Source: a virus
Lineage: Duplodnaviria > Heunggongvirae > Uroviricota > Caudoviricetes
Length of the DNA: 38,006 nucleotides
Reading direction: 5' to 3' (one strand)
Virus record (IMG/VR): IMGVR_UViG_2778261277_000017
Span: 1 to 38,006 of that record
Shown here piece after piece: positions 4,829 through 18,805 of this stretch. Within the stretch, counting starts at the first letter, position 1, and each line of letters opens with the position of its first letter. The translations under genes and the position numbers were made by a program. The notes below the pieces were generated by a model. It saw only the letters and a list, made by a program, of their open reading frames with translations. It was not told where the DNA came from and ran no database searches.

Positions 4829-5197
4829 TCAGGCGGCTTTGATAGTCATATCATCTGAATCAAATATTCCTGATGTATCGATATCGGTAATTCTTATTCC
4901 TTCGCTACCATCCATTGGAGGCCATCCTTCCTGACCATTTCCATCATTCCAGTCGAACTCACACACAACACCATATGCATTTAAGTCGCTTGAAATTGCT
5001 ATAAGCAGAGCATGTTGCGCCAGCATGATTAATACAGCATTTAATACAGAGCCGTGTTTATTGAGTCGGTATTCAGAGTCTGACCAGAAATTATTAATCT
5101 GGTGAAGTTTTTCCTCTGTCATTACGTCATGGTCGATTTCAATTTCTATTGATGCTTTCCAGTCGTAATCAATGATGTATTTTTTGATGTTTGACAT
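4829..5197 (-). CDS. ea10: Ea10-like early protein (lambda ea10)
   Basis: 122-aa acidic ORF (MSNIKKYIIDYDWKASIEIEIDHDVMTEEKLHQINNFW...) at the position of lambda ea10, upstream of cIII in the pL operon. Confidence 0.8.
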   Translation of the reverse strand: MSNIKKYIIDYDWKASIEIEIDHDVMTEEKLHQINNFWSDSEYRLNKHGSVLNAVLIMLAQHALLIAISSDLNAYGVVCEFDWNDGNGQEGWPPMDGSEGIRITDIDTSGIFDSDDMTIKAA

Positions 5198-5212
5198 CTA
5201 TTCATATCCTCA

Positions 5213-5243
5213 CAGATAAAAAATCGCCCTCACATTGGAGGGC
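5213..5243 (-). terminator. Rho-independent terminator-like hairpin upstream of ea10 (minus strand)
   Basis: GCCCTC / GAGGGC 6-bp stem with 6-nt loop at 5226-5243, followed on the minus strand by GATTTTTTAT. Confidence 0.45.
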
Positions 5244-5361
5244 AAAGAAGATTTCCAATAATCAGAACAAGTCGGCTCCTGTTTAGTTACGAGCGACATT
5301 GCTCAGTGTATTCACTCGTTGGAATGAATACACAGTGCAGTGTTTATTCTGTTGTTTATGC

Positions 5362-5387
5362 CAAAAATAAAGGCCGACTATGCGGCC
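5362..5387 (-). terminator. Rho-independent terminator immediately after the 207-aa gene (minus strand)
   Basis: GGCCG / CGGCC hairpin at 5372-5387 followed on the minus strand by TTTATTTTTGG; overlaps the stop codon of the 207-aa gene. Confidence 0.5.
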
Positions 5388-6001
5388 TCGGAAGGAAGTC
5401 CAATCATCTTATTCAAATCTTCTACCCGTAAAGCAGGAAGTGCTGTACTTGCTTTATCTGCTTCTTTTGGTAGCAACTCTTTGCTTTCAGGCCAAACCTC
5501 AATAAGTCGCTTAACTGTTGTGACTGAGTTTAAAGCAGCCCATACATTTGATTCGATATCCTTTTTCTTTGCTTCAAGTTTTTGTTGTAATGAGCAGATT
5601 TCATCAAACCTTTTTGTTATTTCGTGCTCTGCGTCAAACATGCATTTATCTTTTGTCGGAGTAGGGAGCAATATATCTTCGCCGTTGCCGTCTTTCCCAT
5701 ATGAATGCCATCCAACCCTTCTGCCAGATACAGTCAGATAAATTGAAGTAGAATGAACATCGTATGAGTAAAATGAACATCCCATCTTTCCAAGTTCTTC
5801 ACTTATAGCTACCAACTTGGATGATAACTGATCCACTTCCTCAGTTTTCTTTTTACCGCCAAACGCAATAACTCTGGCGTCAAGTGCAAGCTGGTTCTTT
5901 AACTTTGTTACTTCTTCAAGTTCAGTGAAAACCCCAGACTTAATTAAAGCGTTACGAGCGATTTCCTCTTTCATTCTCGTAGTTAAGCGGATTGATGACA
6001 T
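5378..6001 (-). CDS. Hypothetical 207-aa protein immediately downstream of N, where lambda carries sieB/ral; function unknown
   Basis: ATG at 6001 preceded by GAGAGGAATTAAT Shine-Dalgarno. Hydrophilic, largely helical-looking sequence (MSSIRLTTRMKEEIARNALIKSG...). AT-rich compared with flanking lambda genes. No recognisable lambda Ral sequence present. Confidence 0.6.
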   Translation of the reverse strand: MSSIRLTTRMKEEIARNALIKSGVFTELEEVTKLKNQLALDARVIAFGGKKKTEEVDQLSSKLVAISEELGKMGCSFYSYDVHSTSIYLTVSGRRVGWHSYGKDGNGEDILLPTPTKDKCMFDAEHEITKRFDEICSLQQKLEAKKKDIESNVWAALNSVTTVKRLIEVWPESKELLPKEADKASTALPALRVEDLNKMIGLPSEAA

Positions 6002-6012
6002 ATTAATTCCTC

Positions 6013-6339
6013 TCAAATAAGTGGTTTGCTGCCTAATTTCATTTTCTGGCGGCCTGAACAAGTCACACCCATTTCACTGCGTGGCTTGCTGTACCATGTG
6101 CGCTGATTCTTGCGCTCAATACGTTGCAGGTTGCTTTCAATCTGTTCGTGGTATTCAGCCAGCACCGTAAGGTCTATCGGATTCAGTGCGCTTTCTACTC
6201 GTGATTTCGGTTTGCGATTCAGCGAGAGAATAGGGCGGTTAACTGGTTTTGCGCTTACCCCAACCAACAGGGGATTTGCTGCTTTCCATTGAGCCTGTTT
6301 CTCTGCGCGACGTTCGCGGCGGCGTGTTTGTGCATCCAT
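6013..6339 (-). CDS. N: Antiterminator N (lambda-type, divergent C-terminus)
   Basis: MDAQTRRRERRAEKQAQWKAANPLLVGVSAKPVNRPILSLNRKPKSRVESALNPIDLTVLAEYH... is the lambda N arginine-rich motif and core; the last ~25 residues differ from my recollection of lambda N. Confidence 0.9.
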   Translation of the reverse strand: MDAQTRRRERRAEKQAQWKAANPLLVGVSAKPVNRPILSLNRKPKSRVESALNPIDLTVLAEYHEQIESNLQRIERKNQRTWYSKPRSEMGVTCSGRQKMKLGSKPLI

Positions 6340-6537
6340 CTGGATTCTCCTGTCAGTTAGCTTTGGTGATTGGATGGCCGGCGCTGAACCCCGGCTTACT
6401 GGTTAGAGCGCCCGCACTACCAGTGACGCTGTCTTGAGGCGCAGATTGGTTACTGCTTGCCATGAGCGCTGTTTATACATTGGTCGAGCATCAGCCTGCT
6501 CATTCATCCAATCCCAAAGCCTTCTGCTTTGAATGCT

Positions 6538-6569
6538 ACCCTTCTTCAGGGCTTAATTTTTAAGAGCGT
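6538..6569 (-). promoter_or_regulatory. nutL (boxA + boxB) N-utilisation site
   Basis: Minus-strand reading CGCTCTTAAAAATTAAGCCCTGAAGAAGGGT: boxA CGCTCTTA and boxB hairpin GCCCT-GAAGA-AGGG, in the N leader. Confidence 0.8.
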
Positions 6570-6607
6570 CACCTTCATGGTGGTCAGTGCGTCCTGCTGA
6601 TGTGCTT

Positions 6608-12500: not shown

Positions 12501-13104
12501 ACCAGCGCGAAGACGATGTAAAAACGATGAATGTCGGGAATGGTTTCACCCTGCATTCGCTAATCAGTGGTGGTGCTCTCCAGAGTGTGGAACCAAGATA
12601 GCACTCGAACGACGAAGTAAAGAACGCGAAAAAGCGGAAAAAGCAGCAGAGAAGAAACGACGACGAGAGGAGCAGAAACAGAAAGATAAACTTAAGATTA
12701 GAAAACTCGCCTTAAAGCCCCGCAGTTACTGGATTAAACAAGCCCAACAAGCCGTAAACGCCTTCATCAGAGAAAGAGACCGCGACTTACCATGTATCTC
12801 ATGCGGAACGATCACGTCTGCTCAGTGGGATGCCGGACATTACCGGACAACTGCTGCGGCACCTCAACTCCGATTTGATGAACGCAATATTCACAAGCAA
12901 TGCGTGGTGTGCAACCAGCACAAAAGCGGAAATCTCGTTCCGTATCGCGTCGAACTGATTAGCCGCATCGGGCAGGAAGCAGTAGACGAAATCGAATCAA
13001 ACCATAACCGCCATCGCTGGACTATCGAAGAGTGCAAGGCGATCAAGGCGGAGTATCAACAGAAACTTAAAAAACTGCGAAACAGCAGAAGTGAGGCTGC
13101 ATGA
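12490..13104 (+). CDS. ninG: NinG (Rap) recombination endonuclease
   Basis: 204-aa ORF with Cys-rich N-terminus ([25 protein letters not shown]), the same length as recalled for lambda ninG. No ninF-like ORF precedes it. Confidence 0.9.
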
Positions 13105-13773
13105 ATATCTACGAAAGAATTGATGGCAGCAAATACCGAAATATTTGGGTAGTTGGCGATCTGCACGGATGCTACACGAACCTGATGAACAAACTGGATA
13201 CGATTGGATTCGACAACGAAAAAGACCTGCTTATCTCGGTGGGCGATTTGGTTGATCGTGGTGCAGAGAACGTTGAATGCCTGGAATTAATCACATTCCC
13301 CCTGGTTCAGAGCTGTACGTGGAAACCATGAGCAAATGATGATTGATGGCTTATCAGAGCGTGGAAACGTTAATCACTGGCTGCTTAATGGCGGTGGCTG
13401 GTTCTTTAATCTCGATTACGACAAAGAAATTCTGGCTAAAGCTCTTGCCCATAAAGCAGAAGAACTTCCGTTAATCATCGAACTGGTGAGCAAAGGTAAA
13501 AAATATGTCATCTGCCACGCCGATTATCCTTGTGACGAATACGAATTTGGAAAGCCAGTTGATCATCAGCAGGTAATCTGGAACCGCGAACGAATCAGCA
13601 ACTCACAAGACGGGATCGTTAAAGAAATTAAAGGCGCGGACACGTTTATCTTTGGTCATACGCCAGCAGTGAAACCACTCAAATTTGCCAACCAGATGTA
13701 TATCGATACTGGGGCAGTGTTCTGCGGAAATCTCACATTGATTCAGGTACAGGGAGAAGGCGCGTGGGCATAA
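13101..13773 (+). pseudogene. ninI: ninI-like serine/threonine protein phosphatase, interrupted by a frameshift
   Basis: Two adjacent ORFs (13101-13331 and 13336-13773) jointly carry the metallophosphatase motifs (GDLHGC, GDLVDRG, GNHE region). Reading frame breaks at a run of five C at 13307-13311. Confidence 0.75.
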
Positions 13774-14252
13774 GAGAACTAAACCTCACCAAAGAACAGC
13801 ACGAGTGGCTGAATGGCTGGCTTGAACTGTGGGGCGCATGGGTTTATTCAGGTCGTCTGGAAAAGCGCATGAGCAGCGTAATAGCTAAGTTCATGGAGAG
13901 CGTAGAGCCGGGAAGAGTTATGACAAGGCCAATGTGTAATGATGATGATGGAATGTTGATTTCTCAGGTCGTCGATTCCGTCATGTACATTGACAAGAAA
14001 GCCTTTGGCATCCTCCTCAGCTACTACGCCCACGGCTCTTCCAAGCACGCCATTGCATCTTACTATCATCGCGTCGCAAGACCTCGCAAGATGTTATGCC
14101 GGGGCGGCGGGCGCATTCAAAAACCATCGCTCGCAACCTGTCGACGGGAAGTTGACGAAATCCTCAATGCCTCGTTGTTTATGATTTACCCGGTTCTGGA
14201 TGGTGCGTTTAAAAACCGGAAACGTGTAGAGAAAATTAAACATGTAGCATAG
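13764..14252 (+). CDS. Putative late antiterminator Q (non-lambda type), assigned by position
   Basis: 162-aa ORF with GTG start and GGAGAAGG Shine-Dalgarno, between the nin genes and the late promoter/lysis cassette. Sequence is not lambda Q. Assignment is by synteny only. Confidence 0.5.
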
Positions 14253-14258
14253 AACGTG

Positions 14259-14340
14259 TTGACATCATTGAGCAAATGAGCAACACTATTCGCATAAGCT
14301 GCCGTTAGTGACTCTTAAGTTGCAACGGTGGCTTTTTTTA
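14259..14340 (+). promoter_or_regulatory. Candidate late promoter (pR'-like) and T-tract terminator downstream of the Q-like gene
   Basis: Perfect -35 TTGACA at 14259-14264 but no good -10 match; weak hairpin followed by TTTTTTTATTT at about 14330-14343. Confidence 0.35.
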
Positions 14341-14343
14341 TTT

Positions 14344-14418
14344 GGGTCAGTCGTATAAAGGTCATTACGGAAGGCTGTTAACCTTCTTATCGTGGTTCGA
14401 GTCCACGCTGTCCCGCCA
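14344..14418 (+). tRNA. tRNA gene, anticodon loop CUGUUAA (anticodon GUU, Asn-like)
   Basis: Hand fold: acceptor GGGTCAG/CTGTCCC (one mismatch), T-arm CGTGG-TTCGAGT-CCACG, anticodon arm GAAGG-CTGTTAA-CCTTC, encoded 3' CCA. Confidence 0.7.
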
Positions 14419-14423
14419 AATAT

Positions 14424-14499
14424 GCTGGTTTAGCTCCAATGGTAGAGCAGTCGCCTTGTAAGCGAATGGGTAGCGGTTCAAGTCCGTTAACCAGCACCA
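14424..14499 (+). tRNA. tRNA gene, anticodon loop CUUGUAA (anticodon UGU, Thr-like)
   Basis: Hand fold: 7-bp acceptor GCTGGTT/AACCAGC, D-arm TAGCTC..GAGCA, T-loop GGTTCAAGTCC, encoded CCA. Confidence 0.7.
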
Positions 14500-14618
14500 T
14501 AACTGAGCCGTAGCCACTGGCTATCATGAATTCATCAGTGATAGTTACGCTGCGGCCTTCTTTTTTTCCCCTTCCCAATATAAGAACTACGCAATCCGTT
14601 ACTGGCGGAGGCGTTGCT

Positions 14619-14834
14619 ATGAAATCAATGGACAAAATCTCAACTGGCATTGCCTACGGAACATCTGCTGGTAGTGCGGGATACTGGTTTTTGCAGTGGT
14701 TGGATCAGGTCAGTCCGTCACAGTGGGCTGCGATTGGAGTGCTTGGAAGCCTTGTGTTGGGTTTTCTCACTTATCTGACAAATCTGTATTTCAAAATCAG
14801 AGAAGACAGACGAAAGGCTGCGAGAGGTGAATAA
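14619..14834 (+). CDS. S: Pinholin, phage-21 S21 type, with dual-start motif
   Basis: 71-aa [71 protein letters not shown]; two transmembrane segments; Met1/Met4 dual start; GGAGG Shine-Dalgarno. Confidence 0.9.
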
Positions 14835-15331
14835 TGCCTCCATCATTACGAAAAGCCGTTGCTGCTGCTATTGGTGGCGGGGCTATTGCCATAGCATCTG
14901 TGTTAATCACTGGCCCAAGTGGTAACGATGGTCTGGAAGGTGTGAGACATAATCCTTACAAAGACATAGTTGGTGTATGGACTGTATGTTACGGGCATAC
15001 AGGAAAAGACATCATTCCCGGTAAAACGTATACCGAAGCAGAATGCAAAGCCCTCCTGAATAAAGACCTTGCCACGGTCGCCAGACAAATTAACCCGTAC
15101 ATCAAAGTCGATATACCGGAAACAACGCGCGGCGCTCTTTACTCGTTCGTCTACAACGTGGGTGCTGGCAATTTCAGAACATCGACGCTTCTTCGCAAAA
15201 TAAACCAGGGCGATATCAAAGGCGCATGTGACCAGCTACGTCGCTGGACATACGCTGGCGGTAAGCAATGGAAAGGGCTGATGACTCGCCGTGAGATTGA
15301 GCGTGAAGTCTGTTTGTGGGGGCAGCAATGA
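14834..15331 (+). CDS. R: SAR endolysin (lysozyme with N-terminal signal-anchor-release domain), phage-21 R21 type
   Basis: 165-aa [30 protein letters not shown]... with Gly/Ala-rich SAR segment, then a T4-lysozyme-like domain. Confidence 0.95.
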
Positions 15332-15771
15332 GCAGGTTAACCGCGATTATCTCCGCTCTGGTTATCTGCATCATCGTCTGCCTGTCATGGGCTGTTAATC
15401 ATTACCGTGATAACGCCATCGCCTACAAAGAGCAGCGCGATAAAGCCACGTACATCATCGCTGACATGCAGAAGCGTCAACGTGATGTAGCAGAACTCGA
15501 CGCCAGATACACAAAGGAGCTTGCTGATGCTAACGCGACTATCGAAAGTATTCGTGCTGATGTTTCTGCTGGTCGTAAGTGGCTGCGCGTCAAAGCAGTC
15601 TGTCCGGACATGCATAAAACCACCGCCGCCTCCGGCGTGGATGATGGCGCCAGCCCCAGACTTACTGACACCGCTCAACGGGATTATTTCGTTCTCAGAG
15701 AGCGCATCGAAACCATAACTAACCAATTGAATGGCCTGCAAGAGTATGTGAGATCACAGTGTTCATATTAG
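15328..15771 (+). CDS. Rz: Rz i-spanin
   Basis: ATGA overlap with R; N-terminal transmembrane segment ([20 protein letters not shown]) and coiled-coil periplasmic domain. Confidence 0.85.
15521..15718 (+). CDS. Rz1: Rz1 o-spanin lipoprotein, embedded in Rz in the +1 frame
   Basis: Lipobox LVVSGC and proline-rich body ([26 protein letters not shown]); lies wholly inside Rz. Confidence 0.8.
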
Positions 15772-16184
15772 AAAAGTCTTATCATAAGATTTTTGTATAT
15801 GGATGCATTATGTCTCAATACGCGCGCGCCGCTTTAATTGCTTATTATTTGGTTGCTGATAATTCAATATCCCCGCGTGATGCATGGGATGCTGCTGTCG
15901 CTGAGGTTACAGAAAGCGAATCGGCAAGAAAGAAGGGATGCCCAAGGGCAACGTTTCTCGCTCTGGCGGATAGCGGTTATCTGAAGAATGTAAAACCACA
16001 TCATGGGGAGAAAAAGATCGGTAAGTTGTACCAAAGGGCAATTGAAGTTGCGAATCTGATTCTTGATTTACCCGGAATTAGCAAAGCTGAGCTAGTTGAT
16101 AAAACTTGCTATAAAGACAGGCAAGGGTCTTATGACATTGCTCTAACTCTCGCTCAGCACGGATTACTCCAGCGTCCTCAATAA
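15759..16184 (+). CDS. Hypothetical protein after the lysis cassette (start uncertain: GTG 15759 or ATG 15810)
   Basis: 124-141-aa ORF with its own downstream terminator. AT-rich. No family recognised. Confidence 0.5.
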
Positions 16185-16201
16185 GATATTAAGTGATTTA
16201 T

Positions 16202-16226
16202 GGCCTCGCTTTTAGCGGGGCCTTTT
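16202..16226 (+). terminator. Rho-independent terminator
   Basis: GGCCTCGC-TTTTA-GCGGGGCC hairpin (8 bp including one G.U) followed by TTTT. Confidence 0.5.
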
Positions 16227-16409
16227 CACATCTGAATTTCAACGCGCATCTCAGCGCACAATAACCACCTGACCATTTGGAATGAGTCGTTGAAGATACC
16301 TGCAGAGTAGACAGAAAAACCAGCAGAATAAACAACAGAGTAACGAATTAGCTAGCAGGAATGATTGGCCATCAACTACAGCAGTTCCGATTTGATGGCC
16401 ACAAAAAAG

Positions 16410-16598
16410 TTAGTTCAGATCGGCAACGTAGTTGGTAGCTTCGAGATTAGTGATACTAAATTCTGACGCCAAAATACGAGCAAGCTCTTCTTTCGAGCTT
16501 GCTGTGCGGTTTTGATTAGACCAGGCGATCAAGTAAAAACCATTGCTCTTCGCAAGCATGATTTGTATTGCATTGATAGTTATGTAGTAACTGTCCAA
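16410..16598 (-). CDS. Possible small antisense ORF (62 aa, TTG start); may be non-coding
   Basis: ORF with TTG start and GAGGT about 10 nt upstream; no recognisable domain. Confidence 0.25.
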   Translation of the reverse strand: MDSYYITINAIQIMLAKSNGFYLIAWSNQNRTASSKEELARILASEFSITNLEATNYVADLN

Positions 16599-16628
16599 GA
16601 ATAAATTACCTCAGTGTTAGGAAAAGTA

Positions 16629-17180
16629 ATGGCACTCACCGACAAGCAAGAAATGTTCTGTCGCGAGTACCTCATCGATTTAAACGCCACGCAAGCGGCT
16701 ATTCGGGCGGGGTACAGCGCAAAGACAGCTAACCGTACCGCATCCGAAAACTTGTCAAAACCTGACATCAAGTTAAGAATCGCCGAACTGAAAGCGCAAC
16801 GCAATGATCTTGTTGGTATTAATGCAGAATATGTACTTAATCGCCTTCTTGAAATCGACCAGATGGATGTGCTCGACATTCTCCTGCAAAACGGTGAGCT
16901 AAAACCCATTAAAGACTGGCCTAAGGTATGGCGCACAACGCTATCAGGAATGGATGTCGTGGAGATGGTATCCGCAGATAGCGCCGCACTTCTGAAGAAA
17001 ATCAAATGGCCTGATAAGGTTAAAAACCTTGAGTTACTTGGGCGCCATGTTTCTGTTCAGGCGTTTAAAGACAACGTCAAAAATGAAGTGACTGGCGCTG
17101 ATGGAGGACCAGTCAGAACAGAAATTACCAACTTAACGCCGGAGCAGGCTGCAGAGGCGTATAGAAAAATGATGGGCTAA
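16629..17180 (+). CDS. Terminase small subunit
   Basis: [30 protein letters not shown]... is the typical N-terminal HTH of small terminase subunits; directly precedes the large-subunit gene. Confidence 0.8.
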
Positions 17181-17182
17181 GT

Positions 17183-18805
17183 ATGCCGTTACCATTCCCC
17201 TTCGATTTTAAACATCCTGATTACCAGATGGTTTTTGAATGGCGGATGGAACGCCTACAGCGCATTCGCCAGAATCCTGAAATATTGCCTGCACTAAAAC
17301 AGTTTTACCGAACCAATCCGGCTCAGTTCATCATCGACTGGGGCATGACAACGGACCCGCGTAATATTGATTATGGCCTGCCGGTGACCATTCCGTTTTT
17401 ACTCTTCCCTAAGCAGGAGGAGTGGATCCACTGGATTATGGAACGCTGGAGCAATCGGGAGAATGGTATTACCGAAAAATCCCGTGAAATGGGGCTCAGT
17501 TGGACCGCGATCGGACTGGCCTGCTCGCTTTGTCTCTTCAACAAAGAAATGGTTATCGGTTTCGGTTCCCGTAAAGAGGAATACGTCGACAGCACCGGTG
17601 ACCCGAAAGCATTGTTCTGGAAGGCGCGCAAGTTCGTGGAAACGCTACCTGTAGAGTTTCGCGGTTCGTGGAGCGAGAAGAAGCATGCGCCATATATGCG
17701 TGTTGAGTTTCCTGAAACTGGTGCCGTTATCAAAGGCGAGGCTGGCGATAATATTGGTCGTGGTGACCGTACCACGCTTTATCTGGTTGATGAGGCTGCA
17801 TTCCTTCAGCGTCCTCTGCTGATTGATGCGGCGTTGTCACAAACGACGCGTTGCCGTATCGACCTGAGTTCAGTTAACGGCATGGCTAACCCGTTCGCTC
17901 AGAAGCGTCATGGCGGGAAGATACCGGTATTCACATTCCACTGGCGGGATGATCCTCGCAAGGATGAAGAGTGGTATCGCAGGGAATGCGAGAAAATCGA
18001 TAATCCGGTGGTGGTGGCACAGGAACTTGATCTGAACTACAGCGCATCAGCGGAAGGCGTCCTGATTCCATCAGAATGGGTACAGGCTGCCGTTGATGCG
18101 CATATCAAACTGGGTATCCAGCCAACAGGCAAACGACTTGGCGCGATGGATGTCGCCGACGAAGGCAGGGACAAAAATGCCTTTTCCACCCGTCATGGCT
18201 TCCTCCTGGAAAATGTGCGGGAATGGTCCGGTGTGGGCAGCGACATTTATCAGTCCGTCGAGAAGGTCTTCGGTTTTTGCGAACAGGACAACCTCGAAGA
18301 GTTTCGCTTTGACGAGGACGGGCTGGGCGCTGGCGTTCGCGGCGATGCGCGCGCTATCAACGAACTGCGTAACGCTGCGCGCCGACCGTCAATACTCGCC
18401 ACACCGTTTCGAGGTAGTGGCGCGGTATTTGATCCGGATGATGAAGCTGTTCGCGGGGACAACGGGCAAGCCGCACGTCTGAACAAGGACTTCTTCGCTA
18501 ACGCCAAAGCCCAGAGCTGGTGGCGGTTACGTAAACTTTTTCAGAATACCTGGCGCGCCGTGGTTGAAGGTATGGCTTACAACCCGGACGAAATCATCTC
18601 AATCAGCAGTAGCATGGCGCTCAAAGATAAACTCATCATCGAGCTTTCGCAGCCGACCTATTCCATTAATGGTGTGGGAAAAATCGTTATTGATAAACAG
18701 CCTGATGGAACCCGGTCGCCAAACCTTGCCGACTCGGTGATGATCAACTATGCCCCAATGAATTCAGCCCTGAACATCTGGGAGCTGCTAGGGAGACAGG
18801 CCTGA
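17183..18805 (+). CDS. Terminase large subunit
   Basis: 540-aa ORF between terS and portal; Walker B-like [10 protein letters not shown] and deviant Walker A-like [10 protein letters not shown]. Confidence 0.75.

Follow-up and report, generated by a model that had tools for sequence, protein, structure and literature searches.

A cargo gene of the DUF6979 family at the lysis–packaging boundary of a lambdoid Escherichia coli prophage

Temperate phages carry optional single genes at the module boundaries of their late operons—bor and lom in lambda, gp15 in HK97, the Tai genes—and late-region morons of this kind in lambdoid phages have mosaic flanks and a downstream intrinsic terminator. Bor, Lom and gp15 are envelope proteins. 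The Q-to-S interval of lambdoid prophages is another such slot, in which stx genes and tRNAs of phages are found. Lambdoid phages also carry the Tai defence genes, which are mostly sited upstream of the packaging module (PMC11364771). Here, we describe a gene for a DUF6979 family protein in a stretch of viral DNA of 38,006 nucleotides (IMG/VR record IMGVR_UViG_2778261277_000017, positions 1 to 38,006; hereafter, the window means this whole stretch). Pfam, PHROG and NCBI Prokaryotic Genome Annotation Pipeline (PGAP) assignments identify the window as a lambdoid E. coli prophage and place the gene in the interval between lysis and packaging genes, in the order Q-family antiterminator, tRNA-Asn, tRNA-Thr, P21-type holin, lysozyme, Rz, DUF6979 open reading frame (ORF), small terminase subunit (TerS), large terminase subunit (TerL) and portal.

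The locus resembles these systems in layout: the DUF6979 gene is also an optional single gene at a module boundary in the late operon of temperate phages, shares the mosaic flanks and downstream terminator of lambdoid late-region morons and occupies the same slot upstream of the packaging genes as Tai, from which its product differs in showing no sequence similarity to Tai proteins. In contrast to the envelope proteins Bor, Lom and gp15, the DUF6979 protein is predicted to be soluble, cytoplasmic and all-alpha. We regard its identity as a DUF6979 protein, together with its status as cargo, as close to certain.

Membership of the family rests on a Pfam match (DUF6979, PF22399) scoring 102.7 bits (curated gathering threshold, 27; E 2e-29; residues 1–121 aligned with positions 1–127 of the 127 in the model) and on a match to PHROG 5039 across 1–124 of 124 (E 8e-69). 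RefSeq and PGAP already apply the name ‘DUF6979 family protein’ to the gene in 252 of 5,426 complete E. coli genomes. In both Pfam and PHROG terms this is a full-length, high-scoring member that nothing sets apart, although within the wider family it belongs to an enterobacterial prophage sub-clade with about 30% identity to typical members and reads DRQGSYDI where most have NGQMDVV. An alignment of 70 sequences shows that it carries the family-conserved residues A25, W26, A29, K42, C44, P45, L52 and G56. DUF6979 was the sole match in the Pfam scan, which revealed no similarity to the Bor or Ail/Lom families, and NCBIfam returned no match to the protein. No signal peptide or transmembrane segment was found, the N-terminus forming helix 1 of a confidently modelled soluble domain.

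The ORF runs on the plus strand to 16184 and could begin at GTG 15759 (141 amino acids) or at ATG 15810 (124 amino acids). We take the protein to be 124 amino acids long, because every homologue begins at the methionine equivalent to ATG 15810 and because PGAP, in E. coli genomes with an identical or nearly identical sequence, calls the 375-nt form. Ratios of non-synonymous to synonymous substitution (Nei–Gojobori) of 0.23 against the copy in phage SfI and 0.18 against a Salmonella prophage copy point to purifying selection; with the family match, the ORF is a genuine protein-coding gene. An earlier note, made from the letters of the window alone, had reported an ORF of 124–141 amino acids and of unknown family after Rz/Rz1. 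The ORF and its position were borne out, but the 141-amino-acid form was not, and the family turns out to be catalogued as DUF6979 and PHROG 5039; it is the function of that family that remains uncharacterised. The remote-homology check proposed in the same note gave the full-length DUF6979 match and no match to a known structural or packaging accessory family.

The evidence that this gene is cargo comes from its distribution and its boundaries. A block consisting of the 3′ part of Rz, the gene and the hairpin beyond it is found in the same 252 E. coli genomes (of 5,426 complete ones), in every case behind an Rz gene, and among 50,697 phage records just nine have the gene, all of them temperate lambdoid phages of enteric bacteria (including Lambda_4C10, 4A7, D2, 1W, 3W, mEp460_4F5 and SfI) and none of them virulent. 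Across these phages and most of the 252 E. coli genomes, homology to the window ends at 16241–16257 (mostly at 16241–16253), and at 16232–16257 once Salmonella is included, a short way beyond the hairpin. The sequence that comes next varies: a cos end in lambda-like genomes, an HNH endonuclease in SfI, KilA-N and a different TerS in Salmonella, and a Terminase_2 TerS in the window. On its other side, the gene is paired with lysis cassettes of the P21 type and the holin_3_1 type. The TerS/TerL module of the window, for its part, occurs in some 400 E. coli genomes, in which the shared sequence sets in precisely where TerS does (16628), preceded by other occupants such as KilA-N with hypothetical genes (one example) or, in E. 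coli B, a reverse-strand hypothetical gene. By comparison of genomes, the interval between Rz and the terminase genes is thus a variable cargo slot, in agreement with the earlier suggestion that this position commonly holds cargo. Being present in some related phages and missing from others, with mosaic boundaries, the DUF6979 gene behaves in this respect like a moron.

The extent of the transferable unit is indicated by Salmonella prophages, in which the copy of the gene is 77% identical. Two of them (L096 and L098) have a remnant of about 100 bp from the 3′ end of Rz immediately before the gene and behind a different, complete Rz, which delimits a mobile unit corresponding approximately to 15672–16240 of the window. 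In another Salmonella prophage (L097, 3710–4914) an insertion sequence with HTH_Tnp_1 and rve transposase genes is inserted between Rz and the DUF6979 gene, and the equivalent of window positions 15761–15767 is found on both sides of it.

Eighteen nucleotides past the stop codon lies a hairpin with a stem of 8–9 bp (16202–16222; GGCCTCGC-TTTTA-GCGGGGCC), which includes one T·G pair (16206·16218) and is followed by TTTT at 16223–26. Folding together with the flanking sequence gives −21 kcal/mol (z = −4.4 against shuffled sequences). A simple terminator scan of the window missed it because its T-tract has only four T; the Salmonella equivalent, GCCTCGC-ATTTA-GCGGGGC followed by T6, was recognised by the scan. 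The hairpin is kept with tracts of T5–T6 in Lambda_4C10 and the Salmonella copies despite differing flanks. We take these sequences to show a real and conserved terminator, so the claim that the gene has its own terminator, an 8-bp hairpin with a G·U pair and a T-tract, holds up, with the qualification that the T-tract of the window is short.

This terminator bears on how the gene might be expressed. The gene starts 38 nt after Rz, with a weak GGA Shine–Dalgarno sequence, inside the Q-dependent late transcription unit, and would be transcribed at least by read-through from the Q-antiterminated late operon. In lambda, Q-modified polymerase reads through intrinsic terminators. A terminator here would therefore matter only for transcripts that are not antiterminated, and its conservation hints at such transcripts and at some independent expression. 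Any promoter of the gene's own would have to lie in 15672–15809, where the best candidate by eye is TTCATA-17-TAAGAT at 15761–15789, matching at 8 of 12 positions.

A second phage slot for the family came from a scan of IMG/VR for DUF6979, which returned 30 loci. In eight prophage loci (L112, L115, L117–L120, L130 and L131) the DUF6979 gene begins 1 nt after a gene for a Q-like antiterminator (PHROG 127, E 3e-15), with holin, muramidase/lysozyme and Rz genes 140–155 nt beyond it (region ~5100–6600 in each locus). Directly after the DUF6979 stop codon comes TTGAC(T/C)-17-TAAATT, hexamers that we take to be those of lambda pR′. At four other IMG/VR loci, DUF6979 is flanked by a lysozyme gene on one side and a GpA-type large terminase on the other. 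Since these distant phage-borne members are only 27–33% identical to the window protein, lambdoid phages have acquired family members on more than one occasion, and always next to the lysis cassette, at one or other of its ends. The Q-adjacent gene would be the last of the Q (delayed-early) unit in that lineage. Like the Q-to-S cargo, it lies near Q and the late promoter, but stx genes sit downstream of the late promoter, whereas the Q-fused DUF6979 copies sit upstream of the pR′-like promoter. In the window, it is tRNA-Asn and tRNA-Thr that occupy the Q-to-S interval, and the DUF6979 gene stands on the opposite side of the lysis cassette. In some of these loci, further cargo precedes Q: an HNH_2 endonuclease gene (Pfam) in L120 and a 446-amino-acid ORF with a Fic-like motif, read by eye, in L122.

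Beyond phages, an exhaustive profile search recovered 601 representatives of 50%-identity clusters (E ≤0.001), almost all of them stand-alone proteins of 120–140 amino acids; a second search gave 1,570 clusters spread over many bacterial phyla and over methanogenic and other archaea. A search of plasmids with a typical family member gave no match. In domain fusions (P0077, P0116, P0210 and others) the extra regions had no Pfam match. By these searches, DUF6979 is a stand-alone domain of about 125 amino acids with a patchy distribution in Bacteria and Archaea and no fixed partner. For the partner question, ORFs were called at 80 genome loci and the five neighbours on each side clustered all-vs-all: no obligate partner emerged, the largest neighbour family being present in 8 of the 80 loci, and jackhmmer searches with candidate partners found none shared among further loci. 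Among tight co-oriented neighbours, only HNH recurs (4 of 39).

Members of the family often lie beside nuclease or defence genes and within integrated elements. Among 136 neighbours of at least 200 amino acids, matches were heterogeneous: the defence-type Pfam families that recurred were OLD-type ATPases (AAA_21/AAA_15), HNH, GmrSD_N, Mrr_cat, Schlafen/AlbA_2 and NA-iREase1, while PADLOC models picked out mad3, mad8, AriA/PtuA/GajA, NsnA, PDC-M62, PD-T4-2 and ZorD. Individual settings with curated gene calls include a type I restriction–modification system with PDDEXK_4, a tandem-duplicated DUF6979 and McrBC in Tenacibaculum; ZorA–D, DUF6979, GmrSD and an integrase in an alphaproteobacterial metagenome-assembled genome; an HNH gene immediately upstream in Methanolobus; NucS_C and PDDEXK_13 upstream and SNF2 helicases downstream on a metagenomic contig; UvrD-PDDEXK_1, DUF6979 and then HEPN, Cas1 and AbiJ in Methanococcoides; and an integrase-bearing element in Methanoculleus. 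In Kluyvera, a stand-alone chromosomal relative forms a small islet by an integrase or insertion sequence, with long intergenic flanks. Two loci (L136, 6380–6886; L137, 657–1163) have a 168-amino-acid ORF overlapping the end of the DUF6979 gene by 8 nt; it shows by eye a PD-(D/E)XK-like motif (FDLG...IIECK) and has no Pfam match on record. Members from four IMG/VR loci (L113, L114, L116 and L123) have Ser or Gly for the cysteine of the K-x-C-P motif. The tandem duplication (Tenacibaculum sp. Bg11-29; L009, 6001–6771) is a single protein of 256 amino acids.

An AlphaFold2 model of the window protein (12 sequences) was confident, with a predicted local distance difference test score of 91 and a predicted template modelling score of 0.86. 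It has seven helices (3–18, 22–33, 37–40, 43–54, 72–86, 92–99 and 107–116) and single-residue strands at 58 and 120, arranged in two lobes with a lower-confidence linker between them; the conserved AW..A motif falls in helix 2, and K42-x-C44-P45 caps helix 4. Structural matches include cullin WHB, the paired-like helix-turn-helix domains of mariner/Tc1 transposases (Mos1 and SETMAR), at least seven PadR-family entries, Fur-family DNA-binding domains, DP-2, DEK and RecX, and the two-lobe layout recalls the bipartite DNA-binding domains of transposases. In each lobe the winged-helix resemblance is weak, covering 57–70 aligned residues, three helices and a short strand. The protein is thus probably soluble, two-lobed and all-alpha, with winged-helix-like lobes. 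The natural tandem fusion suggests that single-domain members may act as dimers, and the structure, the mildly basic character (isoelectric point 8.9) and the fusion together make nucleic-acid binding plausible. That the protein binds nucleic acid or a nucleic-acid enzyme is, given the model, a proposal that we would put somewhat short of an even chance.

We favour reading the locus as a DUF6979 cargo cassette in the moron slot of a lambdoid prophage, with an accessory role, and consider this reading evenly balanced between being right and wrong. The cassette—a 3′ piece of Rz, the 38-nt spacer, the gene and its intrinsic terminator—is a self-contained unit placed before the packaging module, and its likeliest role would lie in defence, exclusion or counter-defence, not in lysis or packaging. 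A lysis or packaging accessory, such as a protein that modulates spanin or holin action or a helper of the small terminase or of cos/pac, would fit the location between Rz and TerS, the packaging HNH endonuclease downstream of the SfI copy and the weakly winged-helix-like fold; such a role is nonetheless highly improbable, because the same gene pairs with at least four packaging modules and two or more types of lysis cassette, is missing from most phages with this TerS/TerL and has most of its relatives in chromosomal settings outside phages. The modelled soluble globule, with neither signal peptide nor transmembrane segment, also argues against it. Another idea, that the protein resembles MGMT/ATL and binds or dealkylates DNA, arose from a borderline phmmer match in the PDB to the C-terminal domain of Sulfolobus Ogt (E 0.085, aligning CPRATFLAL with SPRAVGTAL). 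That match was lost with the 70-sequence family profile, the PCHR/PWHR motif is absent and Pfam DNA_binding_1 gave no match, so this identity is already effectively refuted.

Within an accessory role, two accounts of when the gene acts, and for whom, compete. If it is a classical moron, a weak promoter of its own in the Rz 3′ end or the spacer would drive expression in the repressed prophage, to the benefit of the lysogen through exclusion or defence. The conserved terminator, with its implication of non-antiterminated transcripts, the Rz remnant and spacer that always accompany the gene, the restriction to temperate phages, the Kluyvera relative with its long intergenic flanks, the relatives in defence islands and the precedent of Tai in the same slot (PMC11364771) all speak for this account, but the promoter search, the defence models and the Q-fused copies with their lack of promoter room speak against it, and we regard it as possible without thinking it probable. 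Alternatively, the gene may serve the lytic cycle, late in the window and delayed-early in the Q-adjacent lineage, by countering nucleases or defences or by modulating DNA transactions. Its place within the late operon with no promoter detected, the eight prophages in which just 1 nt separates it from Q and a pR′-like promoter follows it, and its recurrence beside HNH, PD-(D/E)XK, GmrSD and McrBC nucleases in cellular genomes favour this view; yet known anti-restriction genes act early and not once the lysis genes have been passed, most of the family is found on chromosomes outside phages, archaea included, it is absent from virulent phages and plasmids, and a purely late gene would have no need of a terminator. 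We find the lytic account doubtful. Between service to the lysogen (defence or exclusion) and service to the phage (counter-defence or late DNA transactions) we divide our weight about equally, and modestly in each case.

Several results weigh against the cargo-cassette reading as a whole. No sigma-70 site matching at 9 or more of 12 positions was found upstream on the plus strand, in the window or in Salmonella, by a scan that is insensitive and misses the late promoter too: over 14150–14700, from Q to the holin gene, it found nothing, though a late promoter must exist there. The Q-fused layout leaves no room for a promoter; those copies would therefore be expressed in the lytic cycle, and the arrangement argues, in that lineage, for lytic-cycle over lysogen expression. 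The defence models of PADLOC-DB v2 gave no match to the DUF6979 protein at E up to 1, and no paper on DUF6979 or PF22399 was found in the library of literature searched, function having been shown for no member. Many neighbours of the family are housekeeping genes, and the tally by which roughly one sampled context in two is rich in nucleases or resembles a defence island is an anecdotal raw count without a background. Cys44, though nearly invariant, gives way to Ser or Gly in some members, so no catalytic role is assigned to it. The base composition of the gene as a whole is only marginally low: its GC content of 45.3%, against 49.6% for the window, falls at the 20th percentile among windows of the same size, a fifth of which are as low or lower, and GC at third codon positions is 37.6% against 44–57% in neighbouring genes.

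Of what the earlier note had said about function, then, the label ‘AT-rich’ is weak, GC being lower mainly at third codon positions. Its interpretation of the gene as a moron gains from the cargo slot and the terminator, but lacks a promoter detectable by an insensitive scan; its suggestion of host-interaction or defence cargo is supported by relatives that are often found in defence or nuclease islands, but not by any PADLOC match or Bor/Lom similarity.

Table 1. Features of the window from the lysis genes to the packaging module.
Feature	Position	Strand	Evidence or remarks
Lysozyme	14834–15331		
Rz spanin gene	15316–15771	+	Phage_lysis, E 9e-40 (Pfam); PHROG 13, E 4e-70
Rz1-like lipoprotein ORF	15521–15718		Embedded in Rz, other frame; lipobox LVVSGC, read by eye
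Putative left end of mobile unit	15672–15809	+	Last ~100 bp of Rz and 38-nt spacer; weak GGA Shine–Dalgarno
DUF6979 family protein gene	15810–16184	+	124 amino acids; PF22399; PHROG 5039
Intrinsic-terminator-like hairpin and T-tract	16202–16226	+	Sequence, folding, conservation
Rare mosaic segment before TerS	16242–16628	none	Minus-strand ORF and two-way hairpin inside
TerS and TerL packaging module	16629–18805	+	Terminase_2, E 8.5e-40; PGAP annotation
TerS	16629–17180	+	Terminase_2, E 8.5e-40
TerL	17183–18805	+	

The surroundings of the cassette showed some further features (Table 1). The 387-bp mosaic segment before TerS is present in only 5–7 of the 5,426 E. coli genomes and has no phage match beyond about 55 bp. 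It contains a minus-strand ORF (16410–16598, 49–62 amino acids) for which one genome has a ‘hypothetical’ annotation and searches of Pfam, PHROG, NCBIfam and PADLOC gave no match; inside this ORF lies a two-way hairpin (16479–16503) that resembles a terminator when read on the minus strand. Between Q and the holin gene, tRNA-Asn(GTT) and tRNA-Thr(TGT) occupy 14344–14499, as in phage 21 and SfI, and were the only Rfam matches over 14200–16800. Further upstream, a gene for a lambda-type Ser/Thr protein phosphatase (13101–13773) is split by a +1 frameshift at about 13297–13302, where the window has five C and the E. coli Eco_23-2667 prophage, with an intact 223-amino-acid gene, has four; either the gene is a pseudogene or the extra C reflects a sequencing error in a homopolymer. 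In an E. coli B prophage remnant (L103, 5678–6436), PGAP labels a truncated portal homologue ‘anti-CBASS protein Acb1 family protein’, an odd label for the portal position; a homologue of the window portal gene in a related prophage (L003) is annotated DUF1073.

The arrangement itself is ordinary: the slot is known to vary, and Pfam, PHROGs and RefSeq have all given this moron-type gene a name. A part in phage–host or phage–phage conflict is possible but on the unlikely side, and our best guess, held with low confidence, is a stand-alone nucleic-acid-binding factor in phage–host conflict. More specifically, and still speculatively, DUF6979 might be a conflict protein of a new, stand-alone type that binds DNA or nucleases as a dimer with two winged-helix-like lobes. 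If that were true, it would act alone, either by fighting or excluding phages or by modulating or inhibiting nucleases of the type IV-restriction kind; it would be scattered through defence islands of Bacteria and Archaea, and lambdoid phages would have taken it up at least twice, independently, at the lysis-cassette borders. The value of the gene as a lead lies in a broad and unstudied family of some 600 clusters at 50% identity, in its recurrence near defence genes and nucleases as well as on either flank of phage lysis cassettes, and in a short gene with easy genetics. Assigning a function here could give a first function to the whole DUF.

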